A stretch of 64,000 nucleotides of DNA from Gammaproteobacteria bacterium (GCA_029861845.1 JAOTYM010000001.1:16137-80136), one strand, 5' to 3'; counted from the stretch's first letter, positions 929 through 26,864 are shown. Made by a program: numbers and translations. Notes: generated by a model from the letters alone, not told the origin.

Positions 929-1092
929 TGGTGGGCCGTGCTGGAATCGAACCAGCGACCCCCTGATTAAAAGGTGGATGCTCAAACGTTGTGTTTCAAT
1001 GAATTGAGTGTGAATTGCCAAATATTTCGCTTGGTTTCTACGTCGTTTTAAATCAGATCATTATGTTTTATTTAGCCGCGGATATTTGGCAG
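929..1092 (-). repeat. Junction module copy A: 45-nt 3' half of tRNA-Lys plus ~120-bp conserved element arm (attL-like)
   Basis: 'tggtgggccgtgctggaatcgaaccagcgacc' matches the intact tRNA at 26789. Continues as 'ggatgctcaaacgttgtgtttcaat...attgccaaatatttcgc...gcggatatttggcag', as in the copies at 8046 and 21907. More diverged than those two. Confidence 0.8.
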
Positions 1093-1552
1093 TGTCATAG
1101 GCATGGTCACATTTAAGCCAGGTTCAAAGCTTCCTATCTTAAACAAATTCTTGCCATACAGCCTAAATAAACCAGCTCATCTGTTACCCTGGTATACACA
1201 GACTGATTTGGTTTCGCGTGCCATCCATAGAGCCGCCGATATTCCCACGGTGGATTAGGTTTGCGCTCTCGACCAAACTCCAGGCCCAATGCCCGTCTCT
1301 CCATTTCTTGGACCATACAACGCTGAGGTGCGCACTAGATCGTCTCTAACCTCGAACGAGCGTGGGAGATTACTGGCGAGAGCGAAGACCGATTAACAGG
1401 GCTATGATTTAGATTTCACAGAGGGTGGCAAGGCAGTTTAAGATTAAGAATTGCCTTCTTGGCTTCCTCGCCGGTGGCTGTCAGATTAATTCGTATTTAC
1501 GACATCGAGCGGGATATTGTTTGTAGGTGATCGAGACGACCAAACATAACTG

Positions 1553-2272
1553 ATGATTAGACGGAACATTTTTATCGAAGAACCGCGCCGATGGCTGATC
1601 GCATTCCGGACGATTGCTGTCATGGTCTCGATCGCCGGAGGTGTACTAGCGGCCTCAATCATCTATGCGGTGTACTCGGGGCATTACATAAGCTTCTTTG
1701 GTGCCAGCATCGGCCAAACAGACCAGAGTCTACTTGCCAGAATCGAAACGCTGGAACAGGAATTGGCGAAGCGGCCCATGAGAGACGAGGTAAAGAAACT
1801 CAAGATAGACGTGGAGAAGGCGAAAGCCGAGGCGGTGAACGCGTTGGTGCAATCGGATCTTCCTGATCTTTGGGAGCCTCATGAGTCGAAGGCGCAAATA
1901 ATTGGGAAAATCACAGCGATGAGTAAGATAGCCGATGCTTATAATGAGGTCACTCAGAGCATGGAGTTCGTCTTCGTGGAGCTAGAGCGCGCGATCACTA
2001 GATCGGGCGGCTACATCAATACCAACGAGGGAACGGAGAGCGGCCCGAACGTCTTGCGCTTAATCCAGAGGGCGCTTGCGTCTATTAATGCTTTCGAGGG
2101 TACGCCGGACGGCGAACAGAGCTCTACCAATAAGGCACTCGAGACGTTTCAAGCAACGTACAATGCAGGGCTGTCGCCTGACGAAATACAGCTGAGGCCG
2201 TTGGGCTTCTTCGGGCCGCGCACCCTATCGATCATGCGCGATCGATACTGGCGCCATGACGCGGGAGCATAA
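1553..2272 (+). CDS. Membrane-anchored coiled-coil protein with possible peptidoglycan-binding-like C-terminus
   Basis: 239-aa ORF. One N-terminal TM helix, then a charged heptad-like region ('LARIETLEQELAKRPMRDEVKKLKIDVEKAKAEA'). The C-terminal 'VLRLIQRALASINAFEGTPDG...ALETFQ' resembles the PG_binding_1 pattern. Confidence 0.45.
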   Translation: MIRRNIFIEEPRRWLIAFRTIAVMVSIAGGVLAASIIYAVYSGHYISFFGASIGQTDQSLLARIETLEQELAKRPMRDEVKKLKIDVEKAKAEAVNALVQSDLPDLWEPHESKAQIIGKITAMSKIADAYNEVTQSMEFVFVELERAITRSGGYINTNEGTESGPNVLRLIQRALASINAFEGTPDGEQSSTNKALETFQATYNAGLSPDEIQLRPLGFFGPRTLSIMRDRYWRHDAGA

Positions 2273-2785
2273 ACGCCCGATTGCGAGTTGCCAGAATAGC
2301 GGCACAGATCGCTTCTCGTCTGGCTTGGTCCGCTGGCTTACAATTTACCTGAGTCTACTCGTGCTAACCTCCTGTGTGGCCGCGGTACCGTCGCGTCGGC
2401 CGGCATCGCCCACCGCAGAGGTTTTGGTTGCACCCCGCCTCGATCCGCAAGCTGTCGTCTTCACCGACCAGAGTCAGCTCGGCCATACAAGCTACATAAG
2501 CCCGCTCTACATCACCACTCTTCTGAGCCTGCTTCTTGCAGAACTCCTGCACTACTCGGAAATGTGTTTCCTAGGGCGTAGGTTGGATGGCAACCCAAGC
2601 CTGTGACACTTGACTGAGTCATGACCAAGACTGTCTATATCGTATCCGGTACGCCACACTGGCAGATATTTCGGGTGCTATAGAAGTCAAGCAACCGCGG
2701 TTCCCAAAATTCGGCAAGTGTGAACAGTCGGCCTGAGCGATCTGCGCTGCCGGCGTTTTTCAGGTCCTTGTCACCACAGTTGTGG

Positions 2786-3718
2786 CTACAGACTCTGCTG
2801 TAGAGCAACTTGATTATCGTACTCGCGCCGTACGTTATCGAGGTACTCTTCACGAGGGAGTTCGTGCAACTGTCTCTTGTAAGCTTCGGTCTCATCAAAC
2901 CATAGTTCGGCACGGCGCTCAAAGGCCTCCTTACCCGTCAACGTTTGGGATTCGAGAAACACTCTAATTGCGAGCAGATAGCGGACGACATTACGCTCGA
3001 CAACGCCCTGTATACCCCTAACATATTGTGGCTCGCCGTCTCTGTCGTAACGGGACACGGTAAATCCCTCTTTGTGTCGACCAAGGGTCGCCAAATATAA
3101 TTTTCCGAGTCTCCTCGCCACCTTACCGAATCGCTGCGAAACCCTCAGCTCACTGTAGACGCCGCCGGTTGTCGGTATTGCGTAGAGGTCAATGTGATAA
3201 TGGAAGGTGCCATAAGGCCCCTTCTTTGAGTACAGATTGACGCTAAGCAAGTCCTGCGTATGCTTGCTGTTGAAGTGAAGGGTCAGGGGTTTGGCTTTCT
3301 TGGGAGGCTGGTAGTGTTTCCTGCCAAGGTATAATGTTATCTCTCGACGATCACTGCCGTTTGCAACTGATACACATGCCTTTACGTTTAGGTGCAGCGG
3401 CATGAAGCCACACCATGCAGCCGGCTCGCCCAGTATCGTAGCCAATTCGGCCAACGATCGCCCTGCCATCTCGACCCCCATTCGGGCTACGAACGTACTT
3501 TTTTCAAGCTTCGTAGTCTCTAAGAAGAACGGGATATCCGAATCGTTTCGCTGCTTCCACGATTGGTACGCGGCATGGTTTCTCCGTAGCTCGTCAAGGC
3601 TAGGGGGACCTGCGGCAGCGATCCCAACACAGAAGCTTAATATCAGCGTCGGCGTCAGAAGCATCGCCGCCAACGACATCTTCATCGAACTTTTCATCCG
3701 TCTCTTCCGTTGCCGCAC
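2786..3718 (-). CDS. Secreted hypothetical protein
   Basis: 310-aa ORF with a basic N-terminus plus hydrophobic signal-like segment ('MKMSLAAMLLTPTLILSFCVGIAAAG'). No family recognised. Confidence 0.5.
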   Translation of the reverse strand: MRQRKRRMKSSMKMSLAAMLLTPTLILSFCVGIAAAGPPSLDELRRNHAAYQSWKQRNDSDIPFFLETTKLEKSTFVARMGVEMAGRSLAELATILGEPAAWCGFMPLHLNVKACVSVANGSDRREITLYLGRKHYQPPKKAKPLTLHFNSKHTQDLLSVNLYSKKGPYGTFHYHIDLYAIPTTGGVYSELRVSQRFGKVARRLGKLYLATLGRHKEGFTVSRYDRDGEPQYVRGIQGVVERNVVRYLLAIRVFLESQTLTGKEAFERRAELWFDETEAYKRQLHELPREEYLDNVRREYDNQVALQQSL

Positions 3719-3840
3719 TACGGCTACGGATAGTTTACGACCTAGTGACCTTTACTACGAACCGTAGCGTTGTTCCACATCGCTCCCGGCGATACTGATC
3801 AAACGCCTTATGATTTCGTCGGGAGTTCGAACCTCCCGTG

Positions 3841-3880
3841 CTAAAAAAGCGAAGTTCACACATGGTGAACTTTGCTTTTT
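3841..3880 (-). terminator. Rho-independent terminator (bidirectional hairpin) downstream of the 4066..4767 methyltransferase
   Basis: 14-bp stem 'aaagcgaagttcac'/'gtgaactttgcttt' (one G:T pair) with a 5-nt loop. Flanked by an A6 run on one side and a T5 run on the other. Confidence 0.7.
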
Positions 3881-4065
3881 CTTAGCGCACCCGGAGAGTA
3901 TTTGATCGAGAAACCAACTACCGGGACGCCCGTTGCGTAATTTGCCGTACTGTGCAGGCCCGTGCACGACTCATCCCCACAAAATCTCCCCACATGGCTT
4001 AGACAGTAAACATGCCGGCTCGCAGCTGTGGCGGTAGGGTACCGGGTCTTGATTCTCACCACGGC

Positions 4066-4767
4066 CTATTCAGCCTTCTTCGCCACAATAAACACGGCTT
4101 TGCCTTTTCCCGGTTGCCATTGGTAGTCAATCTGAAAACCGGCATCGGTCAAACTGTCTTCCAGTTCTTTCGTGGTGAAGACCATAACCTGCGGCATCAA
4201 ACCGAAGAATCTTCCAATCGGCACGATAACCTTTAAGAACCTCATCATCGTGTCCCCAATGCATGCCGTACTGGTGACGAATATGCCGCCCGGTTTGAGC
4301 ATTTTGTGCACCTTGGCAATTACCTTTTCCTTGTTATCCAGCAAGTGCAAAATACTGAGCCCCAACACGACATCCAAGGTTTGATCGGCAACGCTGATTT
4401 CCTCGACGGTCGATTGTTCGAAAGTAACGTTTTCGACGTTTTCTGCGTCAGCTTTACCTTGGGCGATTTCGATCATTTTCGATGAGATATCGATGGCGTG
4501 AATGTGTTTCACATAAGGCGCATGGGTGATGGCGGTCGACCCCGTTCCACAGCCAAACTCCAATACCTCCATATCCGGCCGAAAGTGCTCGCGTGTGACC
4601 TGCAGTTTTTTCTGATAGGCCGCTTCATCAGCGATGGGTTGTTTTGAATAGCGCTCTGCAATCTTGTCCCAAAACTTAGTTGACTGATCCACCATCATCC
4701 CCTGCTTATTTGACTGAGACCATGCGCGCTCATCGCTAGACTCGACCAAGTCGCTCGAAGTCATCAA
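4066..4767 (-). CDS. Class I SAM-dependent methyltransferase
   Basis: 233-aa ORF. Motif I 'VLEFGCGTGSTA', plus 'LKPGGIFV'. The real start may be the internal 'MMVDQSTKFWDKIAERY' (around 4698). Confidence 0.75.
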   Translation of the reverse strand: MMTSSDLVESSDERAWSQSNKQGMMVDQSTKFWDKIAERYSKQPIADEAAYQKKLQVTREHFRPDMEVLEFGCGTGSTAITHAPYVKHIHAIDISSKMIEIAQGKADAENVENVTFEQSTVEEISVADQTLDVVLGLSILHLLDNKEKVIAKVHKMLKPGGIFVTSTACIGDTMMRFLKVIVPIGRFFGLMPQVMVFTTKELEDSLTDAGFQIDYQWQPGKGKAVFIVAKKAE

Positions 4768-4864
4768 TTAAAACACGAAAATCGTAATGTAATGACCAAA
4801 ATAAAACGCGTTGAGCGCGGTTCATGACGTTTGTGGTCTCCGTTGTGCGTACGCTTCTTGTTTG

Positions 4865-5293
4865 TCAGAAGCCCTGTGACCGGGTTTCTTTGCCAGTATT
4901 AACGAAGCGCCGCGATCTGACGAAAGCGCGGACGCAAACCAGTCCAATGACCAACTCCAAAACGGCTGCCTGAACAAGCCGTTCAGCTGGCAATCCATCC
5001 ACTGCCATGCTCAGAATCCGGGATAAACCGTAGGAAAAGTAGAGCAACGTGGATACCACCGCGGAAGTAAATGTCAGTTTGGCGACGAAGGTGCCTGACA
5101 TGATCAGTATGCCGCTTGCCATTAGTGCGCCGCCAGGAGCTCGAACTTCACTCAGTAACGAGCTGTTACCACCCAAGTCGATGCCGTTGGTGGCATGAAA
5201 TGCCGCGGGTAAGAACAGAATCGCTCCGCCAATTCCGGTTGCAATCAGTCCGGAGAGGAAAAGTACCATTCTAAGAACTTTCGAATTTTTCAT
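4865..5293 (-). CDS. Small integral membrane protein (four predicted TM helices, DUF4345-like)
   Basis: 142-aa ORF made almost entirely of four hydrophobic stretches. The family name is from memory only. Confidence 0.5.
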   Translation of the reverse strand: MKNSKVLRMVLFLSGLIATGIGGAILFLPAAFHATNGIDLGGNSSLLSEVRAPGGALMASGILIMSGTFVAKLTFTSAVVSTLLYFSYGLSRILSMAVDGLPAERLVQAAVLELVIGLVCVRAFVRSRRFVNTGKETRSQGF

Positions 5294-5455
5294 GACTTTC
5301 GCCTCACGAAGTTGCGTTTCGCATTAAACGCAGGATGTACAACAGCGTTGCCGCCACCGTCCGAACGGTGTTCCACATCGTCCACCGGTCAAGGTAGAGC
5401 TTCTATAATTTGATGGCGTCGGGGTTCGTCGTCCCGATGACCGTGGTTAATTGAC

Positions 5456-6334
5456 TCATGCCGCAACCTCTTCTTCAATTGACGGTGCATTCCAGACACC
5501 CGTATCGGCGATCCGGCGCGCATACTCCGAGAAGTCTGTCGGCTCCCGACCCAGCGCTCGCTGGACACCATCGCACAGGTATGCGTTGCGACCGTCGAGC
5601 ACGGTGGAAAACAGGTAATCCAGCAACCACGCGATGTCATCCGGTGCGCCAGACTCGGCAATGCCGACTGCAAAGGCTTCTTTCGGAATCTGGATGTAGT
5701 CGATAACGCGTCCGCTGGCTAGGGCAATCTCTCCCGCTACCTCAGCAAACGTCAGCATCCGGGGTCCCGTCACTTCGTAGATCTCGCCGGCGTGGCCGTC
5801 TTCGGTTAGCGCCGCGACAGCGACATCAGCTATGTCATCCACGTCGACGAACGGCTCCGGGACATCCCCGGCTGGCAGCGCGATCGCGCCGTCCAGTACC
5901 ATGCCGAGAAATTCGCCGTCCGAGAAATTCTGGTTGAACCAGCTGGCGCGAACCACAGTCCATTCGATACCCGCTTCCTGGACGATCCGTTCGCAAAGCT
6001 GTGCCTCTTCTTCGCCGCGGCCGGACAACAGAACAAGGCGCTGGACACCCTGCTCCACGGCTTTTTCGACAAAGTCGCGGATGGCGTCCGTGGCGCCTGG
6101 AATCGCGAGGTCCGGTGCATAGCTCACGTACGCCGCGGTAACGCCATCGAGCGCCGCGTCCCAAGTGCTCTGGTCGTTCCAATCGAAGCTTGGATCGGCT
6201 GATCGGGATGCGACGCGCGTGGCTACACCACGGCTTGTCAGTCGATCTACCACGCGACGGCCGGTTTTACCGGTGCCGCCCAGAACGAGGGTCATTCCGT
6301 CAGATGGTGTGATGCTGTTCATGTCGACTTTCAT
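5456..6334 (-). CDS. NmrA-like / atypical SDR NAD(P)-binding protein
   Basis: 292-aa ORF. N-terminal Rossmann motif 'VLGGTGKTGRRVVDRL'. Overall NmrA-family layout. Divergent from a TetR gene. Confidence 0.7.
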   Translation of the reverse strand: MKVDMNSITPSDGMTLVLGGTGKTGRRVVDRLTSRGVATRVASRSADPSFDWNDQSTWDAALDGVTAAYVSYAPDLAIPGATDAIRDFVEKAVEQGVQRLVLLSGRGEEEAQLCERIVQEAGIEWTVVRASWFNQNFSDGEFLGMVLDGAIALPAGDVPEPFVDVDDIADVAVAALTEDGHAGEIYEVTGPRMLTFAEVAGEIALASGRVIDYIQIPKEAFAVGIAESGAPDDIAWLLDYLFSTVLDGRNAYLCDGVQRALGREPTDFSEYARRIADTGVWNAPSIEEEVAA

Positions 6335-6354
6335 CGTTCTCTCCTGTTGTTAAC

Positions 6355-6412
6355 TTGACACTGTGTCAATTGACACGGTGTTAACCTTAGGGCAGAATTG
6401 ACACCATGTCAA
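6355..6412. promoter_or_regulatory. Probable TetR operator sites in the NmrA/TetR divergent intergenic region
   Basis: Perfect 15-bp palindrome 'ttgacactgtgtcaa' (6355-6369). A third 'ttgacac' half-site at 6370-6376. Near-perfect palindrome 'ttgacaccatgtcaa' (6398-6412) covering the TetR ATG at 6406. Confidence 0.6.
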
Positions 6413-6999
6413 GTGAAAATATCGAAACCCGCACACGGATCCTGGAAGCAACGGTCCGCATGCTTGAAGAGCACGGGGGACGTGGCGTGCGAATGGGTGA
6501 TATCGCCAAGGAATCCGAGATCTCCCGCCAGGCGGTTTACCTACACTTTGCGTCGCGTACGGAGTTGCTGGTGGCGGCAACGAGGTATCTTGACGAGGTG
6601 CTGGACGTGGATCGCCGACTCGCCCCGTCACGAGCGGCGACGTCTGGCGTCGAACGTCTTGCTCTGTATATCGAGTGTTGGGGTAACTACATCCCGGACA
6701 TCTTCGGCGTGGCCAAAGCGCTCTTGCTGGCGCAAGACACGGACGAGGCGGCGGCTGCAGCCTGGCAAGACCGCATGCTGGCGATGCGAGAAGGCTGCCG
6801 CGCGGCGATCGAAGCGCTGCACGCCGACGGCACCCTTACACCCGAATGGTCGCCCAAGAAAGCCACGGATGCTTTATGGACGATGCTCTTGGTGCCGAAT
6901 TGGGAGCACCTCACAATAAAGTGCGGCTGGTCAACCAAAGCGTATGTACGCTACATGAAGACCTTGGCTCAACGGACTTTTGTAGTGGATTCAAAGTAA
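6406..6999 (+). CDS. TetR/AcrR family transcriptional regulator
   Basis: 197-aa ORF. N-terminal HTH 'RMGDIAKESEISRQAVYLHFASRTELL' is typical of TetR_N. Confidence 0.8.
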   Translation: MSSENIETRTRILEATVRMLEEHGGRGVRMGDIAKESEISRQAVYLHFASRTELLVAATRYLDEVLDVDRRLAPSRAATSGVERLALYIECWGNYIPDIFGVAKALLLAQDTDEAAAAAWQDRMLAMREGCRAAIEALHADGTLTPEWSPKKATDALWTMLLVPNWEHLTIKCGWSTKAYVRYMKTLAQRTFVVDSK

Positions 7000-7053
7000 T
7001 CTCGGTCGCAAACGAAAAGGGGCTTGCCCCAGTAGGCAAACCCTTGTTTTAAA

Positions 7054-7099
7054 TTGCGCGCCCGGAGAGATTCGAACTTCCGACCACCTGGTTCGTAGG
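7054..7099 (-). other. Degenerate 3' half of a tRNA-Arg(ACG), likely an att-site relic
   Basis: Reverse complement 'CCTACGAACCAGGTGGTCGGAAGTTCGAATCTCTCCGGGCGCGCAA' aligns by eye with the E. coli argQ 3' half 'GCTACGAACCGAGCGGTCGGAGGTTCGAATCCTCCCGGATGCACCA'. No 5' half is present, and the T-stem carries an indel. Confidence 0.6.
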
Positions 7100-7424
7100 A
7101 AGGTACCAGAAACGCAACTTACTGATTCGATTCAAACTGGCGGTGTCGACACCCGTTGCAAATATCACGACTGAGCATAACTGCGCACAACCGAGTCACA
7201 CAGATCTCACACAGCTGAGATTCTCACAAGGTCTGCTATCGCGTGACCGGCGATATCACTAGTTGCATCATCAGCCAATCCGCTCAAGGACTTCGGCTTG
7301 TGCGGATAGCCAATTGAAGAAAACGCCATGAAATCTTGATTCAGCGCAATGCAATTGCGCCCAAGCGGAATTATCGTTCAATAATTACATAACGAATGTC
7401 GTCACAAAGGAGAGGAGGTAGACC

Positions 7425-7970
7425 ATGCCTGTTCATCTGGAGCCGCGAGACGTTTCTGCTGACCTTGAAAACTTCAACTCGGTTTTGATTGTCTCTTGTC
7501 CCGTTTGTCCGCCGATGTGTCTGGCGATGCAGCAGAACTTGCCGTTCATTGAGTTCTTCAAGCGGGGCCTCAAGACAGGGGCTTTCGAAGACTACATCCA
7601 GTCTATTCGCAAACCGCTCGAGCAACGCGGCATGCCAACCGGCGCGTATTCCATACACACGCCAACTCCGATGATGTGCCTTTGGACCAAGGGGCAGCGC
7701 CGCCGATTGCTGAAACGCGCCCGGGACTATGAGGCGGTGCTCGTATTGGGGTGCGATTCTGCCGCATATACCGCGCAGGAAGCCCTCAAGAATACCACCT
7801 GCCAAGTCATTCAAGGGATGCGGATGATCGGTACCACAAACGCTACCCTAAAGGTTCGGTTTCCCATGACGATTGACCTCGACATGCATTGTGTGCTGAA
7901 GAACGGCGAGGCGCGCCAGCACAAGACCAACGTGGGCGCGAGCCAGGAAATCGAGAAGATGGCATCATGA
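7425..7970 (+). CDS. Cys-rich hypothetical protein
   Basis: 181-aa ORF preceded by a strong RBS 'aaaggagaggagg'. Contains a 'SCPVCPPMC' cluster and further Cys residues. No family recognised. Confidence 0.55.
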   Translation: MPVHLEPRDVSADLENFNSVLIVSCPVCPPMCLAMQQNLPFIEFFKRGLKTGAFEDYIQSIRKPLEQRGMPTGAYSIHTPTPMMCLWTKGQRRRLLKRARDYEAVLVLGCDSAAYTAQEALKNTTCQVIQGMRMIGTTNATLKVRFPMTIDLDMHCVLKNGEARQHKTNVGASQEIEKMAS

Positions 7971-8045
7971 CGGAGAACGGTTCAATGAACGAAGGCCACA
8001 CCACACAAAAAGTAGGGGTAGCAAACCACTAGTTTTGGTGGGCCG

Positions 8046-8209
8046 TGCTGGAATCGAACCAGCGACCCTCTGATTAAAAGGCGGATGCTCAAACGTTGTG
8101 TTTCAATAACTTAAGTGCGAATTGCCAAATATTTCGCTGAGTTTGTACTTCGTTTTGAATCAAATCGTTAGGTTTTATTTGGCAGCGGATATTTGGCAGT
8201 TCCCTATTT
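8046..8209 (-). repeat. Junction module copy B: 45-nt tRNA-Lys 3' half plus conserved arm
   Basis: Differs from copy C (21907-22070) at about 4 positions by eye. Shares an extra 'agcaaaccactagtttt' immediately to the left with copy C. Confidence 0.85.
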
Positions 8210-8244
8210 TAGAAACAGACTAGAAACATGTAAGCTAGAAACAC

Positions 8245-8640
8245 ATGCCACGGCCAAAAGGACTCCCAAAGACAGGCGGGCGACAGCGAGGGTCGCTGAA
8301 TAAGCGTACCATCGCGCAGCAGAACCAAACAAAGACGATACGCCAGGCGGCCAAGGAAGCTGGTTCATCGCCGCTTGAGTACATGTTGCAGGTCATGCGA
8401 GATCCCGCAACGGAAGCCCAGCGTCGGGACGAAATGGCGAAGGCCGCTGCCCCCTACTGCCACGCCCGGCTGCAAGTCATTCAAGGCGGGGCGGAGGATC
8501 AAATTAACGATAAGAAGCCGATAAACCTGCTAGTGGTGGCGAGACAAGTAGCCTTGGCCTTACATCTGGCCGACAAGCAGCTAGAGCAACACCCATCTGT
8601 CGGAAAGGCGCAGCAGTTCCCGTCCTCGACTGAGTTGTGA
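8245..8640 (+). CDS. Phage/island-associated small basic protein
   Basis: 131-aa ORF. N-terminal 'MPRPKGLPKTGGRQRGSLNKRT' is a motif I associate with small proteins of phages and integrative elements. It is the first gene inside the element arm. Confidence 0.5.
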   Translation: MPRPKGLPKTGGRQRGSLNKRTIAQQNQTKTIRQAAKEAGSSPLEYMLQVMRDPATEAQRRDEMAKAAAPYCHARLQVIQGGAEDQINDKKPINLLVVARQVALALHLADKQLEQHPSVGKAQQFPSSTEL

Positions 8641-9996
8641 TAACTCAGGCCCGACCGTACAAACACCGTCAGAATTACCCTCGCCTTAATGGCGGCTCTC
8701 GCCCGCGCAGCGGTCGGTCGAGTGCTACGATGACAACAGGCGGAAATCGACCCGCTGCTGCCATTCGAGCCTCGGCAACCTGAGTGTCCGGTATTCAGCC
8801 CTAGTGCGGTCATTTCAAACAGTTACGCTATTCATAAAAAAGCGAAACACTTAGCGGTTGATCTAAGGCTCGTAAGACAGTTGCGCTTCTTCTAATTGCG
8901 AAAACGTCTGACTACAACTATTCAAATCTCGGGTTGGTCCGTCCAGCCTTGCACGCCGACCGGCTGCTCCTTAGCCCGAGCGCCACCGCAGGGTGAACTA
9001 CCGAGCCTGACGGAATAAGGTTTACACCCTCTCGCGCCCATCCTCCGCCCGGCTCACCAGCGCAGACGAAAACGCCCGTCATCGCGCTGATTTCGGAGGT
9101 GCCCATCGCCGTGGCAAGGAAACTCGGGCGTGCACAGCATCCGAGGACAGCGATCACCGCTAATTACATGGGTCCGAATCACGGCAATGGGACACTCGTT
9201 TTCACAAAAGAGGGGGTTATCCTTGCCTACACTCCGCTAGAGCACGGTCTGGGTATCTTCCCGGCAGGCCATCTATTGTTGCGAGGCGCATCCTTTACGG
9301 GCACGAGGCAGGAAACTGTGGATACTGCGAAAGATTAACCGAAGAGCGGTTGAGCCTGTCCCGCACTCTACCCTTTAACCCCCCTTCGTTGTCTCAAAAA
9401 AAGGGCGCCCGGATCGACGTCCAGGGGCCCCGAGACGCAGTGCTCTTCCGCTGGGTCAACCAACCCGGCGGCGGCGCTATCTACGGCAGGTTTTGCTGCG
9501 CGTGGGCGCCGATGTCGTTCGCCTGCTCGATCGTGCCGCCGAAGACCACGATGCCCGGCATTGCGGTCCCCGGGTGGTCGTAACGCACCTTGTGCTGGAA
9601 CTCCCACGGGCTCGCTCATGCAGGGTAACACGACGACCGTGGGCGTATGTCGGGGTCGGCCACCCTGGGTAACCGAGGTCGCTCGCCGGCCGCGACGCAT
9701 TTGGCCTAAGGCTCACGAGCGCGGACGGCGATACCGGCGGTCGTCGCGGTCATCGTCAGCTCTGAATGGCCGATCGGATATGGGGGTTCAGGAGTCTTTA
9801 TAGGCTTTAGGGGCCTTTATATTCGAACAAGCACAGTAGGATCCCCAAGGCGCGTGCCGTGTAAAACGCGCGCGAGATCCAACGCTACCCTGACTATTCG
9901 CAAAGAATCGACGGAGGGGTCCTTCCCTCCGCCGTCGGTTACGCGCGCCTAGCGCTCAGCCATGACGCCAGCAGTTCCACCTAGTCGTTGTCGTCG

Positions 9997-15063: not shown

Positions 15064-15080
15064 GTTGCCCTCCGATAGGC

Positions 15081-17590: not shown

Positions 17591-17620
17591 AGGCGCGCCC
17601 CGTGCGCGCCTTTTTCTTTT
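17591..17620 (+). terminator. Rho-independent terminator after the ABM-like gene
   Basis: GC stem 'ggcgcgc'/'gcgcgcc' with loop 'cccgt', followed by 'tttttctttt'. Confidence 0.75.
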
Positions 17621-17679
17621 CAGCGCGGATCGCTACCGTGGTCACACCACTAGGAAGACAGGAGGCCCGCCATGCCCTT

Positions 17680-19878: not shown

Positions 19879-19923
19879 TAGTGCCTAGTAACTTTCAAGT
19901 CTTGTTATAGTTAGTTGCTGCAT

Positions 19924-19954
19924 CCTCCCGTGCTGGCGGCACGGGAGGTTTTTT
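19924..19954 (+). terminator. Rho-independent terminator after the collagen/Hcp-like gene
   Basis: 10-bp stem 'cctcccgtgc'/'gcacgggagg' followed by 'tttttt'. Confidence 0.8.
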
Positions 19955-20373
19955 GTGTGGTTAGACCGTTATTGCCCCTTAGGACCGGTGGTCACAAGGG
20001 GACTACCAATGATTGACATTTCGGTTGCCATCCCGCTGAGCGTTCTGCCCAACAGACAACACGGAGAGGGAAACCACCATGCCCTTCTACCTAACCCCCG
20101 AACAAGACGACTACAACCAAATCTCCGAGCCTGTATTGCCGAAGCCTTGTACGATGTAGATTCGATTGTGGCGGACCCAGGGGCTTACACGAAAGAAGAA
20201 CTCGCAAGCCTACACAGCCAGATCTTGTCTAATCGGGAACAGGCGTGGGAGCTATTAGGTGGGAGTGAGGATCAACTCCTGTCTACGATGATGCAGATCT
20301 CGCAGGTGGTGACGCGGGAATTTACGAGGGAGAAATGAACGCTCTACCTGCGAGGTAGGCAGCCCGTCCGCGC

Positions 20374-20589
20374 CTACTCCTTTCGGCGACTTAGTTCGAG
20401 TTCTAGAAGCCTCAACTTTGTCTCAGGGATCGGCGCTGTTTGGCCCTTCGACAGCCACCCGTATACCCGTAGCTCTGACACCCTGAGGATCTTGGCTACC
20501 TCCTTGGCCGAGATCTCGTAACGCTTCATCAAGGTCCGGAGTTTTCGGAGCTTCGTTCTCGGCTTCATCAAGGTTCGCCCTCTACGCAT
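20374..20589 (-). CDS. Small HTH protein (excisionase/regulator-like), divergent from the integrase
   Basis: The C-terminal 50 aa 'YEISAKEVAKILRVSELRVYGWLSKGQ' form a helix-turn-helix. The long ORF extends to 20724, but the basic 'MRRGRTLMKPRTKLRKL' start looks more plausible. The start is uncertain. Confidence 0.5.
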   Translation of the reverse strand: MRRGRTLMKPRTKLRKLRTLMKRYEISAKEVAKILRVSELRVYGWLSKGQTAPIPETKLRLLELELSRRKE

Positions 20590-20845
20590 GGCCCCAGGAA
20601 CATCGAAAACATAGCCGCTAGGCCCCGCCAGAGCCCGCTGGGGGTGAGAAATAGCACGACCGACCCCCAAGCTATTAGCAGTATTGCAAGTCTTGCAGGA
20701 CTGCAAGTTTAGTCTAGGAATCAACCCCTGAATAGCTTATGATAAGAGGTCTTCCCAAAAGCTAATTTGGGGAAGGGCGAGCCCCGCAGGTGCGCGAACA
20801 CCTACGAGGCTCTAACCACAACGCAACCTGTATAGGAGGTGCGCC

Positions 20846-21877
20846 ATGGCTGCTGTCATCCTACCACGGCCTATTGCTGGCCAAAGTCTCTCCACTCGTG
20901 CCACCCGTAACCCGGCGAGTGTTTATCTCGCCTCGCTTCAACCTACGGGCAGACGTGCGATGGCGGGTCGTTTGAAGACCGTTGCCGAGTTACTCGGCTA
21001 CACCAACATACGTACCGTCCCCTGGCACGCGCTGCGCTATGAACACGCGACCGCGATCCGCGCCAGACTCCAGGAACTCGGCAAGGCTCCGACAACAGTG
21101 AACGCAACGCTCTACGCGCTCCGTGGTATTGCGAGGGCTGCGTTCAACCTGGGACTCATGACTGCGGAAGATTACCAGCGTTTGCGAGACGTGCGCCCGG
21201 TAAAAGGTGAGCGACTCCCAGCTGGTCGCGCTCTTTCCCGTGGAGAGATCGCCGCGCTGATGGCCGCCTGTACCCGTGATAAAGCCTCAGCCGGTATCCG
21301 CGATGCGGCGCTGATCGGCATTATGTACTGCGCCGGATTACCCCGGGCCGAAATCGTAGCCCTCGATCTACAGCACTGCACCCTTGGTGGGGACACGGCT
21401 GAGCTTAAAGTGCAAGGCAAGGGCAACAAGGAGCGGCTTGTCTATCTCGACAACGGCGCGCACGATGCGCTCGAAGACTGGTTGCGCTTGCGCGAAGACA
21501 GCTCCGGGGTGCTTTTTGTTCCGATTAACAAGGGTAGTCGTATCCAACCCCAGCGCATGACCGAGCAAGCCGTGTACAACGTACTTCGCAAACGCGCTAG
21601 GGAGGCTGGCATCAAAACCTTCTCGCCACACGATCTGCGTCGAAGTTTCATTGGAGATCTGCTCGATGCGGGGGCAGATATCGCTACCGTTCAGAAGCTC
21701 GCTGGCCATGCCAACGTGAGCACCACAGCCAAGTATGATCGGCGGGGTGAGCAGGCGAAGAAAAAGGCCGTGAAGTTGCTGCACATCCCGTACCAATCAC
21801 AAGGAGGCCACTTTGATGATCATCCCCTTTCCAGGCGCAGCAGAGCGCAAGAACTTTCATCTAGACAAAGTCCATGA
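20846..21877 (+). CDS. Tyrosine recombinase / phage-type integrase
   Basis: 343-aa ORF after RBS 'aggagg'. Catalytic pattern is present: 'GLPRAE' (Arg), 'KGNKER' (Lys), 'HDLRRSF' (His-x-x-Arg), 'LAGHANVSTTAKYDRR' (His...Tyr). Ends 29 nt from the tRNA-Lys half-site. Confidence 0.85.
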   Translation: MAAVILPRPIAGQSLSTRATRNPASVYLASLQPTGRRAMAGRLKTVAELLGYTNIRTVPWHALRYEHATAIRARLQELGKAPTTVNATLYALRGIARAAFNLGLMTAEDYQRLRDVRPVKGERLPAGRALSRGEIAALMAACTRDKASAGIRDAALIGIMYCAGLPRAEIVALDLQHCTLGGDTAELKVQGKGNKERLVYLDNGAHDALEDWLRLREDSSGVLFVPINKGSRIQPQRMTEQAVYNVLRKRAREAGIKTFSPHDLRRSFIGDLLDAGADIATVQKLAGHANVSTTAKYDRRGEQAKKKAVKLLHIPYQSQGGHFDDHPLSRRSRAQELSSRQSP

Positions 21878-21906
21878 AGGACTCAGGGTGAGCAAACCAC
21901 TAGTTT

Positions 21907-22070
21907 TGGTGGGCCGTGCTGGAATCGAACCAGCGACCCTCTGATTAAAAGGCGGATGCTCAAACGTTGTGTTTCAATACGTTAAATGCGAATTGCCAAA
22001 TATTTCGCTGAGTTTGTACTTTGTTTTGAATCAAATCGTTAGGTTTTATTTGGCAGCGGATATTTGGCAG
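21907..22070 (-). repeat. Junction module copy C: 45-nt tRNA-Lys 3' half plus conserved arm
   Basis: Near-identical to copy B. The arm carries inverted 'tgccaaatat' / 'atatttggca' motifs. Confidence 0.85.
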
Positions 22071-22237
22071 CATCACGAATAGTATTGCGTTGCCCAGCGC
22101 TACGTCTATAAGCTGACCTGATACGTCACCCCTTTTTGTGTAGTTTCAAGGCGACCACTCTCCTTCGAAACCTCGTCCCAGTGTTTTATCAACGATTGGC
22201 TAACATTGGCATGCCTTATGCACCATAGGGCCAGTTG

Positions 22238-22345
22238 TTTCGTTACAAAGGCAAACCATCCCGAAAGGGTGGGACGCAAAGCTACCTGCCTAGGGTCGAA
22301 AGACGAAGGTAGAGGGGCCGCAGGAGAAACGCCGTACTTTGCAGG
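22238..22345 (+). promoter_or_regulatory. c-di-GMP-I (GEMM-I) riboswitch-like aptamer
   Basis: 'AAAGGCAAACCAUCCCGAAAGGGUGGGACGCAAAGCUACCUGCC...GUCGAAAGAC..AGGUAGAGGGGCCGCAGG' parallels V. cholerae Vc2 'GGGCAAACCAUUCGAAAGAGUGGGACGCAAAGCCUCCGGCC...CCGGUAGGUAGCGGGG'. It has a GAAA-capped first hairpin, the conserved ACGCAAAGC junction, and a 6-bp CUACCU/AGGUAG second helix. It lies ~95 nt upstream of a c-di-GMP signalling operon. Confidence 0.7.
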
Positions 22346-22438
22346 CTTCCCCCCCCCGTCCCTCGAAAACTAGGTCAGCCAGGACTATGGTTTTAGGACT
22401 ATGGTTAATGAGCATTAACCTAATTAGGGGCGAATCCC

Positions 22439-24340
22439 ATGTCATTAAGAAATAAAGTGATTTTTATCATCGTGGCACTGTTCCTCACCTACGGTGCTTT
22501 GGATATTGGTGTTCAGCGCTTTGTCATCATGCCGAGCTTCACTGAGCTCGAGCGCGACGAAGCCACAAAAAACATGGAGCGAGCCGTCCAGGCCATGGAG
22601 CGTGAAATCGAGCACCTGGGCTTTTCAGTCAGCGACTGGGCGTTCTGGGACGACACGTATGAGTTTGTCTCCGGCACCAATCCCGAGTATGTGGAGGATA
22701 ATCTTGTCTTCACCAGCTTCACCGCCCTCAAGGTCCACCTCATGCACTTCTATAACACCGAAGGGAAGCTGGTGTGGGGGAAAAGCTTCGACCTTGAGAC
22801 GGAGGAGGAGATCGAAGTATCCGAGTTTGCCGAGGGTGCGCTGACGGTAGAGAGCGCCCTCATCACCCATAAGACAGAAGATAGTGTCGTTTCAGGGGTC
22901 TTCATGACCCAGGGTGGACCGATGCTGCTCGTATCCAAGCCTGTCTTGACGAATGAGATAAAGGGACCGCCTGCGGGCGCGATCATCATGGCGCGGTTTC
23001 TCAACGAGGCGGCCATCGACACCATCGCCGAGCAGGCTCGGGTCGACCTCGTCGTCGCCCCGCTCATGGGTGCCAACGCCATCAAGCATGATGCACTTCA
23101 GCACATTTCCGACGAGGCGCCTACCTACATCGAGCAAACTGATACCAGCTCCCGCGTCTTTACGACATTTAAGGGCGTCGACGGCAAGCCAGCGCTGTTG
23201 CTGCAGGTCGATGTCCCAAGAGAAATCAGTGCCCGCGGCGAGACCGCTGTCCGCTATGCGGTTGGTTCTCTCGCCATCGCTGGCCTCCTGGCGCTTGGGG
23301 TGCTGCTCCTGCTGCTCCAGCGCACCGTTTTCAAGCCGGTGACCCGCCTCACCAACCACGTTATTCAATTCGGAAAGAGTGACGACTTGGCGGCACGCAT
23401 AGCAATGGAGCGTGATGATGAGATTGGGACGCTCGCCCAAGAGTTCGACCGAATGGTTGAGCGGCTTGCCGACGCGCGCCGCCGGCTCATCGAACAATCC
23501 TATGAGTCAGGTGTGGCCGAGATGGCAAGTGGCGTGCTGCACAACATTGGCAACGCTCTGACCCCGGTGACGGTTCGGCTGGCAAATTTGTCGCAGACAC
23601 TGCACAAGGCACCGCTTGCCGAGGTGGACCAGGCCCATGCGGAGCTTGCTGAGGGCGCCGCACCGGCTGAGCGCCAGGCGGCTCTCAAAGAGTTTGTGAC
23701 GATGGCCGGTCAAGAGCTTGCCGAGACGGTACGCCGTACAGCTCAAGATGTGGAGGTAACCACGAGTCAGATCAGCCACATTGAACAGATTTTGGCCGAC
23801 CAAGAGAAGTTCAGTCGCGCAGAGCGCGTCCTCGAGGCCATCGACATCGATGGGCTTGTTGCGGAGTCTCTAGGCTTTGTGTCGACGACTCTCCTCGAGT
23901 CGATGTCAGTCAAACAGGATTCGGCCCTCAAAGACATGCATCCCATCGACGGCGCGCGAACACCATTACAGCAGGTGGTGGCGAATCTCATCATCAACGC
24001 GGCCGAAGCTATACAGCACATGCCTGCCGACGAAGGTCGGCTTGAGATTTCAGCCGAGGAGACACGTGTCGACGGGGATGAAATGCTCCACATTCGGTTC
24101 AAGGATAACGGTTGCGGCATTGATCCACAGAATATTGAGCGCATCTTCGAGCGTGGCTTTACGACTAAACCGTCTGGCGCCTCGGGGCTAGGGCTGCACT
24201 GGAGCGCCAACACTGTTTCGGTGATGCGCGGGAGACTTTACGCAGAAAGTGAAGGTGCGGGGCGCGGTGCCTGTCTGCATCTATTGTTACCTCTATCCTC
24301 CTCTGCCACGGGGACGTCAGTGACCGAGGTTGCGGCGTGA
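22439..24340 (+). CDS. Sensor histidine kinase with CHASE4-like periplasmic domain and HAMP
   Basis: 633-aa ORF. TM1, then a periplasmic region with 'SDWAFWDDTYEFV' (CHASE4-type, from memory), then TM2 and HAMP ('DEIGTLAQEFDRMVERL'). H-box 'SGVLHNIGNAL'. HATPase_c N/G boxes 'NLIINAAEAI', 'DNGCGI', 'GLGLH'. Confidence 0.8.
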   Translation: MSLRNKVIFIIVALFLTYGALDIGVQRFVIMPSFTELERDEATKNMERAVQAMEREIEHLGFSVSDWAFWDDTYEFVSGTNPEYVEDNLVFTSFTALKVHLMHFYNTEGKLVWGKSFDLETEEEIEVSEFAEGALTVESALITHKTEDSVVSGVFMTQGGPMLLVSKPVLTNEIKGPPAGAIIMARFLNEAAIDTIAEQARVDLVVAPLMGANAIKHDALQHISDEAPTYIEQTDTSSRVFTTFKGVDGKPALLLQVDVPREISARGETAVRYAVGSLAIAGLLALGVLLLLLQRTVFKPVTRLTNHVIQFGKSDDLAARIAMERDDEIGTLAQEFDRMVERLADARRRLIEQSYESGVAEMASGVLHNIGNALTPVTVRLANLSQTLHKAPLAEVDQAHAELAEGAAPAERQAALKEFVTMAGQELAETVRRTAQDVEVTTSQISHIEQILADQEKFSRAERVLEAIDIDGLVAESLGFVSTTLLESMSVKQDSALKDMHPIDGARTPLQQVVANLIINAAEAIQHMPADEGRLEISAEETRVDGDEMLHIRFKDNGCGIDPQNIERIFERGFTTKPSGASGLGLHWSANTVSVMRGRLYAESEGAGRGACLHLLLPLSSSATGTSVTEVAA

Positions 24341-26607
24341 CTACGCAGCCTGAGCCGCCGGCCTCACCATTACGTGTGCTTATCGCCGACGACGAGGCTG
24401 TGATTCGGGAGTCTTACCGGGACATCCTGGCGCCGAACAGTTCCAAAACACCCGCCGGCGACAAATTCGGCGCCATGAAGGCCCAGCTTTTTGGTGCGGA
24501 TACGCAACCGGCCGAGCGTCCCCAGATTGAAGTCGTTTGCTGTGAACAAGCGGAGCAGGCGGTCGACGCGGTCGTGCAAGCTCTCGCGGCGGGCCAGCCG
24601 TTCGCGGTTGCGTTTCTCGATATTCGCATGCCCCCAGGAAAGGACGGCGTGTGGGCGGCCGAGCAAATCCGGGCGCTCGACCCCGACATCGAGATTGTCA
24701 TCGTCACCGCCTACTCTGACGTCGACCCACAAGAAATCGCCGCCCGCGTACCACCAGTCGACAAGCTCTTGTACCTGCAGAAGCCCTTTCACCCCCATGA
24801 GGTTCGCCAATGTGTCTCGTCGCTCGGCGCCAAATGGCGCGGCGCGCAGTCACTTCGAAAAAACCAGGTTCGCCTCGAGACGGCACAACGCATCGCCAAA
24901 TTCGGGTACTGGGAGTTGGACCCACAAACGGGCTACGCCTGGTGGTCGCGCGAGCTGTGCAATGTGTTCGGTTTGCCGGTCGACCACTGTAGCGGACCGA
25001 TTCAAACGCTCTGGTCGCGCATCCATCCCGACGACGAGCCGCAAGTTCAGGTGGCCATCAATCGCGCAGTGCGCGAGCGCACAGCTAGGAGCCTTGAATA
25101 CCGCATAAGGGCGCCCGATGGGTCGGAGCGATATATCCGCCAGGAAGTCATAGCGACCGATGCGGAGGACAACGTCTGTCGGATGATCGGAGCGGTGCAG
25201 GACGTCACCGAACGCAAGGTAATGGAGAACCAGATTCGCCATCTTGCGTATTTTGACCAACTCACGGAGCTACCCAATCGCACCTTCCTTACGAAGCACC
25301 TCACCTACGTGCTGAGCCAGGCCAAGCGGTACGAGCGCACCGTTGCGCTGCTCTACGTCGACCTCGATAACTTTAAACGAATCAATGATACCTTCGGGCA
25401 CAGTCGCGGCGACGACCTCTTGCGAGAAGTTTCCGTGCGGCTCAAGGCTTGTGTCCGCGAGAGTGATGTCGTCACACATGCTTCCCGGCCAGAGCGCCCA
25501 TCGCCGATGGACAAAAGTGGCACTGACACGATTATCCGCTTCGGTGGTGACGAGTTTATTGTCCTGTTGAGTGAAGTGGCTCATGTGCAGGATGCGGCGC
25601 GGGTCGCTCGGCGCATTATTCGAGCCCTGGAGGTTCCCGTACGATTTGACGCCACCGACGTAGTGGTTGGCGCAAGCATCGGCATCGCGCTGTACCCAAA
25701 CGACGGCGACACCGACGAAGTATTGCTCAAGAACGCAGACGCTGCCATGTATCACGCCAAGGAAAATGGCCGTAATAACTTTCAATTCTACACGGAGACT
25801 TTAAACGCGACGGCCTTTGAGCGACTGTCGCTCGAGGCAGATCTCAGACACGCCATCGAAACAGACGAACTCATATTGCACTATCAGCCGAAGATTAGCG
25901 TAGTGGACGGTACTGTGGTGGGGGCTGAGGCCCTGGTCCGTTGGCACCACCCCGAGCTTGGCATGGTAGGCCCCGGGGAATTCATCCCGATTGCAGAGGA
26001 GACCGGTCTCATTGTCCCGTTAGGTGAGTTTGTATTGCGTACCGCCTGCAATCAGATAAAGCAATGGGAGGATGCAGGCGTTCGCATGCCAATCTCAATC
26101 AATGTGTCATTTCGTCAATTTCGCGACCAATCTCTGATTTCCCAAGCCCGCCAAGCGCTTGCGGCCACAGGCATTAGCCCACACCTTTTAGAGATTGAGT
26201 TTACCGAGAGTGCCGTCATGGAGGACACGAGGGCAAGCGATCGACTCCTCGCCGAACTCAAGGCGCTTGGTCTTTCCATCTCCCTGGACGATTTCGGAAC
26301 CGGATACTCATCCCTTAGCCGTCTCAAACGGCTACCCATTGATATCCTGAAGATTGACCAGTCCTTTGTCAGCGACTTACTGACAAGCGCAGACGACGAA
26401 GCAATCGTGACGGCCATCATCGCGATGGCGCATCACATGAAACTGACAGTTGTCGCGGAGGGAGTCGAGACGCAGGCACAACTGGACATCCTCAGCCATC
26501 ACGGGTGCGACATCATGCAGGGTTATCTCGTGAGCCCCGCGGTACCCCCAGGCGAGTTCGAAAGCCGATTTCTGAATGGTGAGTCTCAATTAGAAGTGGC
26601 CGTTTAA
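24337..26607 (+). CDS. Response regulator REC-PAS-GGDEF-EAL (c-di-GMP turnover)
   Basis: 756-aa ORF whose start overlaps the kinase stop by 4 nt. REC ('VLIADDE', 'FLDIRMPPGKDG', 'LQKPF'), PAS, 'RFGGDEF', 'EALVRW', and 'DDFGTGYSSL' are all present. Confidence 0.85.
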   Translation: MTTQPEPPASPLRVLIADDEAVIRESYRDILAPNSSKTPAGDKFGAMKAQLFGADTQPAERPQIEVVCCEQAEQAVDAVVQALAAGQPFAVAFLDIRMPPGKDGVWAAEQIRALDPDIEIVIVTAYSDVDPQEIAARVPPVDKLLYLQKPFHPHEVRQCVSSLGAKWRGAQSLRKNQVRLETAQRIAKFGYWELDPQTGYAWWSRELCNVFGLPVDHCSGPIQTLWSRIHPDDEPQVQVAINRAVRERTARSLEYRIRAPDGSERYIRQEVIATDAEDNVCRMIGAVQDVTERKVMENQIRHLAYFDQLTELPNRTFLTKHLTYVLSQAKRYERTVALLYVDLDNFKRINDTFGHSRGDDLLREVSVRLKACVRESDVVTHASRPERPSPMDKSGTDTIIRFGGDEFIVLLSEVAHVQDAARVARRIIRALEVPVRFDATDVVVGASIGIALYPNDGDTDEVLLKNADAAMYHAKENGRNNFQFYTETLNATAFERLSLEADLRHAIETDELILHYQPKISVVDGTVVGAEALVRWHHPELGMVGPGEFIPIAEETGLIVPLGEFVLRTACNQIKQWEDAGVRMPISINVSFRQFRDQSLISQARQALAATGISPHLLEIEFTESAVMEDTRASDRLLAELKALGLSISLDDFGTGYSSLSRLKRLPIDILKIDQSFVSDLLTSADDEAIVTAIIAMAHHMKLTVVAEGVETQAQLDILSHHGCDIMQGYLVSPAVPPGEFESRFLNGESQLEVAV

Positions 26608-26624
26608 TAGACGGGCAATCAGTT

Positions 26625-26741
26625 ATGCACAACCCCACTGAGCTGCTAGGGCATGATGATCCAAAGACAACAAATCGGGTTTATCGCCGGGGACCACGCA
26701 GAGTGACCCCACTCAAGCCGAAAATATTAGGCAATCGGTGA
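26625..26741 (+). pseudogene. C-terminal remnant of a tyrosine integrase next to the tRNA-Lys 3' end
   Basis: The frame reads '...ELLGHDDPKTTNRVYRRGPRRVTPLKPKILGNR*', which is the LGH...T..Y box of tyrosine recombinases. There is no upstream integrase body; the EAL gene ends at 26607. Confidence 0.6.
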
Positions 26742-26788
26742 TTTATTAGGCAGCGGTTTTTTGAAAAGACCGATAAGCTATTGATTAT

Positions 26789-26864
26789 TGGTGGGCCGTG
26801 CTGGAATCGAACCAGCGACCCTCTGATTAAAAGTCAGATGCTCTGCCAACTGAGCTAACGGCCC
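26789..26864 (-). tRNA. tRNA-Lys (anticodon UUU)
   Basis: Reverse complement 'GGGCCGTTAGCTCAGTTGGCAGAGCATCTGACTTTTAATCAGAGGGTCGCTGGTTCGATTCCAGCACGGCCCACCA'. Full cloverleaf, with anticodon stem TCTGA/TCAGA, loop CTTTTAA and an encoded CCA. Confidence 0.95.

Follow-up and report, generated by a model that had tools for sequence, protein, structure and literature searches.

Genomic islands can accumulate one behind another in a single target gene, and both this accretion and the decay of older units to integrase-less relics flanked by attachment (att) sites are documented (PMC5704250, PMC3146451). Tandem islands described with Islander/TIGER have an intact tRNA gene (tDNA), displaced 3' fragments of that gene in direct orientation that mark the island ends, att sites centred on the anticodon and several islands per tDNA; the anticodon-centred class of phage-type attachment site (attP) is the commonest among tRNA-integrating islands in the Islander survey, and arrays of at least three islands by its criterion are rare, with 4 among 3919 islands (PMC4383910). 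In cis-mobilizable elements (CIMEs), known from ICESt1/ICESt3 of Streptococcus thermophilus and from a tRNA-Lys composite of S. agalactiae (PMC5704250), older units decay to att-flanked segments that lack an integrase. The ssrA islands of Dehalococcoides (PMC3146451) are likewise arranged in tandem, bounded by directly repeated 3' ends of a small RNA gene, each with an extra conserved flank, and some of their units have no integration module. Here we describe a locus with these features in a 64,000-nucleotide (nt) stretch of DNA from an uncultured gammaproteobacterium (GCA_029861845.1 JAOTYM010000001.1:16137-80136), called the window below, where three att-bounded units, A, B and C, lie head to tail between positions 929 and 26864. 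We consider it likely that this array arose by serial integration (accretion) of temperate elements of the lambda-Int type into the tRNA-Lys(UUU) gene next to cpoB, and that the integrated units then decayed. The locus is a new example of known tandem accretion in an unstudied lineage, with unusually legible att sites and an integrase that does not match their arms.

The array is recognised by four direct copies of a 45-nt core, read on the plus strand, of which three are perfect and the leftmost has one mismatch; none would be expected by chance (Table 1). The first-pass annotation, made by a model from the sequence alone, had placed such copies at 929, 8046, 21907 and 26789, and all but 8046, a slip for 8036, are correct. 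A single intact tRNA-Lys(UUU) gene is detected by ARAGORN and Rfam. It lies on the minus strand with its 3' end facing left, and the three partial copies are therefore downstream of it and in the same orientation. The proposal that att-bounded segments are stacked head to tail on the 3' side of a single tRNA-Lys gene, with the intact tRNA at the right end, thus agrees with our analysis, and the arrangement by which Islander recognises islands, an intact tRNA gene with cognate 3' fragments downstream in one orientation, is present with three fragments. In the tRNA sense the core comprises positions 32-76, which begin with the anticodon loop (CTTTTAA) and run through to the terminal CCA. Past the core, the partial copies differ from the tRNA at 2 of 3 nt (GCG in place of TCA, on the 5' side of the anticodon stem) and are then identical for 7 nt; the block of identity between element and tRNA ends precisely where the anticodon loop begins, at its 5' edge, which is a canonical Islander sublocation. 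This pattern fits an attP whose identity with the target ends at the anticodon loop, and the presumptive crossover position is deduced from it.

The core is part of a longer repeated module, found by repeat search and self-BLAST, which spans 186 nt in copies B and C (8014-8199 and 21885-22070; 96.8% identical, with 6 differences) and 166 nt in copy A (928-1093; 88-90% identical to the other two). The module consists of 22 nt present in B and C only, the 45-nt tRNA part and an arm of about 120 nt. That the same arm follows each partial copy had been noticed before and is borne out, with 88-97% identity among copies; copies B and C had rightly been called near-identical, with the number of differences underestimated at about 4. 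Also as described, GCAAACCACTAGTTTT stands left of copies B and C, at 8021 and 21892 only. In a self-BLAST of positions 1-27000 against the whole window, the module was seen in the array only and was absent from the remaining 37 kb, so that it is not a dispersed repeat within the window, and no similarity between the three units was found beyond the module. The units can thus be called three related elements as far as their att arms go, and otherwise not, since nothing but the 166-186-nt att module is shared.

The same data bear on a different history, in which one or two integrations took place and the module was then multiplied, whether by homologous recombination or unequal crossing-over, by import of a composite or through a transducing-type hybrid site of flank, core and arm, with unrelated cargo inserted or exchanged later. 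Such multiplication would account best for the 22 nt that modules B and C share and for their 97% identity over 186 nt, 22 of them outside the core, as recombination or duplication of a whole junction would give, and the units indeed have no other sequence in common. Mosaic origin is also indicated by a decayed 3' half of tRNA-Arg(ACG) in unit A, which begins at the anticodon loop and is a sign that a foreign att relic was incorporated there; it escaped ARAGORN and an Rfam E-value scan, was identified by alignment, and is identical at 32 of 38 positions to what we take to be the sequence of Escherichia coli argV. Transfer of whole composites is, moreover, documented (PMC5704250). The divergence of module A from B and C fits separate arrivals instead, the similarity stops sharply at the module edges, and the contents of the units are entirely different, so that no segment larger than the module was duplicated. 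We therefore hold multiplication of the module to be a doubtful, minor possibility beside serial integration.

The arms themselves point to the kind of element that was integrated. The motif TATTWGGCA has 11 matches in the 64 kb, where 0.54 would be expected, and 10 of the 11 lie within the three arms or the 70 nt left of the intact tRNA. Each arm of about 120 nt carries one inverted match, at a distance of about 45 nt from the core, and a direct pair at its far end, the middle site of copy A being degenerate, and two more direct matches, at 26725 and 26744, are found between an integrase stub and the intact tRNA; the tttattaggcagcgg box noted earlier to the left of this tRNA is at 26741-26755. 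Exact matches to WATCAANNNNTTR, the consensus of integration host factor (IHF), occur between the inverted and the direct sites in arms B and C (8158-8170 and 22029-22041) and, in the tRNA-proximal arm, beside the core (26774-26786, minus strand); all three are no more than matches to the consensus. In lambda attP, a core lies between arms that hold repeated arm-type sites and sites for bending proteins. A core flanked by two arms that repeat one motif unrelated to the core, with candidate bending-protein sites, is by analogy the organisation of lambda attP, and in the lambda convention the integrase-proximal arm would correspond to P' and the 120-nt arm to P.

A second line of evidence comes from the stub at the right end of unit C (frame 26562), which is the GH...Y end of a tyrosine recombinase and is truncated upstream by the gene for an EAL protein. 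A word-indexed search revealed three longer remnants in other metagenomes, 70-81% identical to the stub, that add the HxxR box (..ERFTFNDLRAKAAS..). In one locus (L013) the two-site arm recurs after a pseudogene remnant, and beyond it lies a tRNA-like 3' half that differs from the one here; in another (L012) a more distant remnant precedes another tRNA 3' half and an HTH_17 gene. Searched directly, the short remnants have no match in Pfam, PHROGs, NCBIfam or PDB. A profile of the remnants, compared with 1.84 billion representatives, identified 539 proteins. The full-length relatives have 320-335 amino acids (aa), match the stub profile at their extreme C-terminus, and contain a Phage_integrase catalytic domain and, in most cases, a central domain. 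Among solved structures, lambda integrase (1z1b, 1z1g, 5j0n) is the closest to them, with E = 5.8e-6 and about 24% identity for P0245 and others; the alignment begins at residue 1 of lambda Int (MGRKRKH.RHDLP..YF..GAYY versus MGRRRSHERRDLPPNLYIRNNGYY), in the arm-binding domain, for which the Pfam models did not score.

When IMG/VR was scanned with an alignment of the full-length proteins, 452 relatives were found in predicted viral contigs; these contigs measure 15-70 kb, and the relative is often located at one end. Among the 80 of these loci that were kept, 5 have an intact tRNA on the opposite strand at most about 170 nt from the integrase stop, and tRNA-like fragments occur in further loci. 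Two viral loci had their att layouts read in detail. In L028, a tRNA 3' half comes after two direct TTATTAGGCA sites and before two further copies of the 9-mer, one inverted and imperfect, the other direct; in L045, one ATTTTTGGCA site, a one-base variant, is followed by a tRNA-Lys(CUU)-like 3' half and by one inverted and one direct copy. These layouts tie the arm motif to the integrase family of the stub, and place that family in temperate phage-type elements. The motifs thus behave like the arm-type sites that they had been supposed to be, as they occur on both arms of the array and, as the same 9-mer or a one-base variant, near related integrases in two phage contigs. Because the stub's family aligns to lambda Int and is found upstream of tRNAs in predicted phage contigs, two of which show related motifs, lambda-type elements are the most likely builders of the array. 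The apparent likeness to lambda attP and Int (1z1b, 1z1g) lies in arm-type repeats on both sides of the core, IHF-consensus matches and an integrase that reads toward att, whereas the lambda site is located between gal and bio and not in a tRNA anticodon loop, and the arm sites differ in sequence and number.

On this basis we propose the following mechanism. The builders would be temperate phage-type elements encoding a lambda-Int-like, arm-binding tyrosine integrase. In their attP, the 3' end of the integrase gene would come first, then an int-proximal arm holding an IHF-like site and a direct pair of TATTAGGCA sites, then the 45-nt core, and last an int-distal arm some 120 nt long, in which three TATTTGGCA sites, one inverted and two direct, surround an IHF-like site. 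Strand exchange would occur in or beside the anticodon loop. Each integration would rebuild the tRNA from the element's own copy and leave the displaced 3' half, together with the int-distal arm, at the element's far end, and the units would pile up as further elements entered either the regenerated tRNA or an att site already present. In the course of decay, unit C would have retained its int-proximal arm and a 36-codon remnant of its integrase, and units A and B would have lost both integrase and int-proximal arm; the right ends of both now show one and the same 22-nt junction. On this reading, A and C are probable att-flanked relics without an integrase, and B is a probable relic that carries an unrelated recombinase module.

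Several observations weigh against serial integration by such elements. The right ends of units A and B have no int-proximal arm and share the 22-nt sequence. Library scans recognised no phage genes in the cargo except one ORF (open reading frame) with weak similarity to a terminase small subunit. Neither an intact lambda-type integrase nor any integrase cognate to the arms is present in the window. The order of events and the present-day immobility of the units are inferred; should an intact integrase ending ..ELLGHDDPKTTNRVYRRGP.. be encoded elsewhere in the metagenome-assembled genome (MAG), it could act in trans. In viral contigs, the 26-mer at the core/arm junction, two more arm patterns and a core 31-mer have no match, so that the exact arm was found in none of those scanned, and the att region has no BLASTN match in the phage and plasmid collections. 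No empty or shorter site was found among the relatives retrieved. Finally, binding at the arm sites, binding of IHF and the position of the crossover are predictions from sequence patterns.

Units A and B may also be derivative elements, which would have kept core and int-distal arm and exchanged the lambda-type integrase and int-proximal arm for the GCAAACCACTAGTTTT junction, in unit B together with a Xer-like recombinase and an HTH (helix-turn-helix) gene. This is an option to which we give little weight. It may have taken the form of a module swap, in which a recombinase without an arm-binding domain acts on an anticodon-loop site with fossil arm sites; possibly, instead, the units were integrase-less hitchhikers moved in trans or in cis by the lambda-type integrases of co-resident phages.

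Table 1. Features in and around the tRNA-Lys array, with coordinates in the window
Feature	Coordinates	Strand	Remarks
Relic resembling int-proximal arm	868..889	+	AATCGGT-N5-TTTAAGGCAG, 39 nt left of core 1
Core copy 1	929..973	-	Covers tRNA-Lys(UUU) 32-76, anticodon loop through CCA; 1 mismatch
Unit A	974-8035		Integrase: none
Int-distal att arm, unit A	974..1092	+	Putative arm-type sites 1016-1024 (inverted), 1083-1091; 88-90% identical to arms B and C
Unit A cargo	1093..8013		Two hypotheticals, S-adenosylmethionine (SAM) methyltransferase, DUF4345, NmrA-like protein, TetR regulator, 181-aa hypothetical
Decayed 3' half of tRNA-Arg(ACG)	7051..7098	-	Same orientation as Lys cores, begins at anticodon loop
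22-nt junction (..AGCAAACCACTAGTTTT)	8014..8035	+	Common to right ends of units A and B
Core copy 2	8036..8080	-	Same as tRNA 3' part, no difference
Unit B	8081-21906		Integrase: IntB (Xer-like)
Int-distal att arm, unit B	8081..8199	+	Putative arm-type sites 8123-8131 (inverted), 8176-8184, 8190-8198
First gene of unit B, 131 aa	8245..8640	+	PHROG 15261; weak match to terminase small subunit
HTH protein, divergent to IntB	20374..20724	-	Pairing also in locus L011
IntB, Xer-like tyrosine recombinase	20846..21877	+	Only intact integrase in array; stop 29 nt before core 3, reads toward core 3
22-nt junction, second copy	21885..21906	+	Repeat search
Core copy 3	21907..21951	-	Same as tRNA 3' part, no difference
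Unit C	21952-26788		Integrase: 36-codon lambda-type stub
Int-distal att arm, unit C	21952..22090	+	Putative arm-type sites 21994-22002 (inverted), 22047-22055, 22061-22069
Unit C cargo	22240..26607	+	Cyclic di-GMP (c-di-GMP)-I riboswitch, CHASE4-HAMP histidine kinase, REC-PAS-GGDEF-EAL protein
C-terminal stub, lambda-Int-type integrase	26613..26741	+	36 codons, ends ..NPTELLGHDDPKTTNRVYRRGPRRVTPLKPKILGNR*
Int-proximal att arm	26720..26788	+	Two direct putative arm-type sites 26725-26733, 26744-26752
Intact tRNA-Lys(UUU)	26789..26864	-	ARAGORN and Rfam; 3' 45 nt = core copy 4

A rival candidate for the builder is IntB, the recombinase of unit B. IntB is intact and directed at core 3 with the usual geometry of integrase and att, the 22 nt left of the right-hand cores are common to units A and B, and IntB and the divergent HTH gene form a conserved two-gene module, found also in L011 (1249-2618) with 59.6% (HTH) and 75% (IntB) identity. 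IntB could thus have integrated units A and B, and perhaps C, with an attP consisting of the 186-nt module including the 22-nt GCAAACCACTAGTTTT side. What speaks against this is the setting of its relatives: in six retrieved loci, of four distinct contexts, with IntB homologues of 65-75% identity, no tRNA gene, tRNA fragment or module is nearby. IntB has thousands of metagenomic homologues of 55-75% identity, on short contigs without an obvious target site. It matches Xer-type NCBIfam models and no others, and its score of 137 bits, compared with cut-offs of 279-335 for XerC/XerD, makes it Xer-like but neither XerC nor XerD; its catalytic domain begins at residue 130, which leaves no room for an arm-binding domain, while the module is built on the arm-type repeats of a different integrase family, to which IntB has no significant pairwise similarity. 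The similarity of IntB to its relatives ends about 26 codons before the stop, so that its last 26 or so aa are non-homologous and the stretch that separates IntB from the core is foreign to the IntB module; the searches made found no further repeats of that stretch. Unit A, in addition, carries the 22 nt without any IntB, and tblastn finds no integrase in that unit at all. IntB was accordingly rejected as the main builder, on the strength of homologue loci that have neither tRNA nor module, and a role for it in the integration of A and B is unlikely.

As the IntB relatives retrieved are not found beside tRNAs, IntB is probably cargo or a replacement, and together with its HTH partner is more likely a separate two-gene module of this kind than the agent that built the array. 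That IntB adjoins core 3 is more likely due to the original integrase having been lost along with its int-proximal arm than to IntB's own activity, although IntB may have taken over the function of that integrase. The genes that are present therefore do not show the single integrase lineage that had been proposed for the three units: A has no integrase, B a Xer-like recombinase, and C the lambda-Int-type stub. Serial integration by elements of the stub's family remains our preferred explanation.

In 596 Gb of genomes scanned, the core/arm junction 26-mer has one match in genome contigs (L001), and an arm 25-mer has one match in JGI metagenomes (L005), at the same locus, which belongs to another organism. 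Both the former (binned as Gemmatimonadota; 2370-2715) and the latter (275-622) contain an arm of the int-proximal type, a decayed core with a 3-nt deletion and substitutions, and a 120-nt arm that is 93-96% identical to those of the array, and in both the attP-like junction is downstream of a cytochrome c-like gene. The similarity to arm C extends to about 22090. This distribution can be set against the idea that the module is a dispersed repeat, of the REP (repetitive extragenic palindromic) or MITE (miniature inverted-repeat transposable element) kind or a small RNA gene, in which the tRNA-like piece is incidental and unrelated to integration. A 17-nt imperfect inverted repeat in the arm would suit such a repeat, as would an arm that is somewhat better conserved than the core in L001 and L005, but the copies in the window all belong to the array, lie in one orientation and each start with the exact 3' part of the tRNA, and only one other locus is known from the genomes and JGI metagenomes. 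A role of the arm as an RNA gene was rejected, as there is no Rfam match and the folding z-scores, from -1.3 to -2.2, are unremarkable. The dispersed-repeat idea is highly improbable and, within the data available, effectively refuted.

Some details of this second locus may be added. No tRNA gene lies within 13 kb of the attP-like junction. A Mutator-family (IS256-like) transposase is located about 20 nt beyond the arm in L001 and is absent in L005. The core is more decayed there than the arm, with strain-specific differences at about 5 of 42 positions versus 4 of 120, which is a marginal contrast.

The array is found in DNA of about 55% GC, and its GC content does not differ from that of its surroundings. 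To the right of the tRNA-Lys gene follow cpoB, pal, tolBARQ, ybgC and ruvBAC. The CpoB protein is closest to those of Acidiferrobacterales MAGs and the IntB protein is named in NCBI as from a Gammaproteobacteria MAG, so the Pseudomonas setting suggested in the first-pass annotation does not apply. An independently assembled ENA contig matches the window from 10.8 to 38.3 kb except for 36 nt in a run of collagen-like repeats; it spans module C and by its coordinates would reach left to about position 5290, past module B. A contig from a second sample (L004) ends inside arm C, at position 22058.

Look-ups with Pal and IntB for an empty site returned the same population only. The three contigs with the closest CpoB relatives (88-91% identity; L014, L015, L016) all end inside the tRNA-Lys gene. 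These breaks, at tRNA-Lys and in arm C, are consistent with repeats or variation at the locus, and extra copies of tRNA-Lys could also explain them. A more distant contig (L017; 60% CpoB identity) has the gene order cpoB, queE, queC, transporter, tRNA-Lys(UUU) with a nearly identical tRNA, and this difference in order makes it unusable as an empty site. After the tRNA (13823-14300) it has three TTGCTAC repeats and an ORF ending ..QMGHSSIKVTTDTYGHL.., which is tyrosine-recombinase-like by eye and has no match in Pfam; this suggests that tRNA-Lys may be an integration hotspot in the wider clade.

The left boundary of the array is uncertain. Positions 868-889, which read AATCGGTCACAGTTTAAGGCAG, resemble the int-proximal arm, and their pattern, AATCGGT-N5-TTTAAGGCAG, recurs in the window only at 26733-26753, 35 nt from the core. 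The pattern was chosen after both sites had been seen and the wider alignment of the relic with the arm is weak, for which reasons we treat the relic as a lead only. The array may continue to the left of 929 as a fourth, older and decayed unit that runs off the start of the window, and a methyltransferase gene at 108-767 may belong to it. Of the composite proposed to extend from 929 to 26864, the tandem array thus stands, and its left end at 929 is in doubt.

How the locus departs from the systems described at the outset can now be stated. Islander requires an integrase in each island, and here unit A has none, unit B has one of another type than the arms imply, and unit C has a stub. Units A and C are att-flanked and without integration and transfer genes, the property that defines a CIME and that older units of such composites acquire by decay; in contrast to the CIMEs of the ICESt1/ICESt3 type, the array has no conjugation or mobilization genes and its builders were apparently of phage type. 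The Dehalococcoides islands have a 20-bp repeat, a transfer-messenger RNA (tmRNA) target and a serine recombinase, and the array a 45-nt core, a 120-nt arm, a tRNA target and the relic of a tyrosine integrase. The PAPI-1/pKLC102 islands, named earlier for comparison, also use a tRNA-Lys hotspot near the tol-pal cluster. They differ in their host and in their size, about 100 kb as against units of 5-14 kb here, and scans of all ORFs of at least 80 aa over 1-27 kb of the 64,000-nt window with Pfam and NCBIfam revealed no pKLC102-type integrase and no conjugation, pilus or type IV secretion, relaxase or partition genes; the array is not an island of that type.

The array leaves the current understanding of island formation unchanged. 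It documents a tRNA-Lys integration hotspot in a poorly known lineage related to Acidiferrobacterales, and provides a clean attP model for a large family of lambda-like phage integrases, which has at least 452 relatives in IMG/VR; the model combines a core in the anticodon loop with TATTWGGCA arm sites and IHF-like sites. Such a model could aid island-mapping software and the mining of integrases with defined att sites. The cargo is of local interest for a riboswitch-controlled c-di-GMP operon, a fusion of TIR and FGE domains and a fusion of Hcp with collagen-like repeats.

In unit C, the c-di-GMP-I riboswitch (22240-22325; Rfam 65.6 bits, compared with a gathering score of 35) is upstream of the kinase/GGDEF-EAL operon, and a pair that senses and metabolises c-di-GMP makes up the whole cargo of the unit. 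Unit B is more varied and encodes, besides the phage-like 131-aa protein and the HTH protein, a multihaem cytochrome c-like protein, a TIR-FGE-sulfatase fusion, Yip1, an SNase and a TIG-collagen-Hcp fusion. The fusion of TIR with an FGE-sulfatase (SUMF1-like) domain (11684-13051, minus strand) has a weak ThsB-like match in PADLOC, with no partner gene recognised; as evidence for a defence island, the PADLOC matches of the unit are weak (TIR-like, E = 1e-4; SNase, 8e-4). The ORF at 18220-19878 combines a TIG domain, a collagen-like GXY repeat and two matches to Hcp of type VI secretion. Its tract of 9-nt repeats (18622-18891) is where the window and the ENA contig of the same population differ, by 36 nt or 4 GXY triplets. 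The SNase gene (15828-16283, minus strand) has its 5' part repeated at a distance of 1.5 kb with 80% identity (16123-16322 and 17679-17872), and a 35-nt sequence (16454-16488 and 17118-17152) recurs between the small ORFs with 89% identity.

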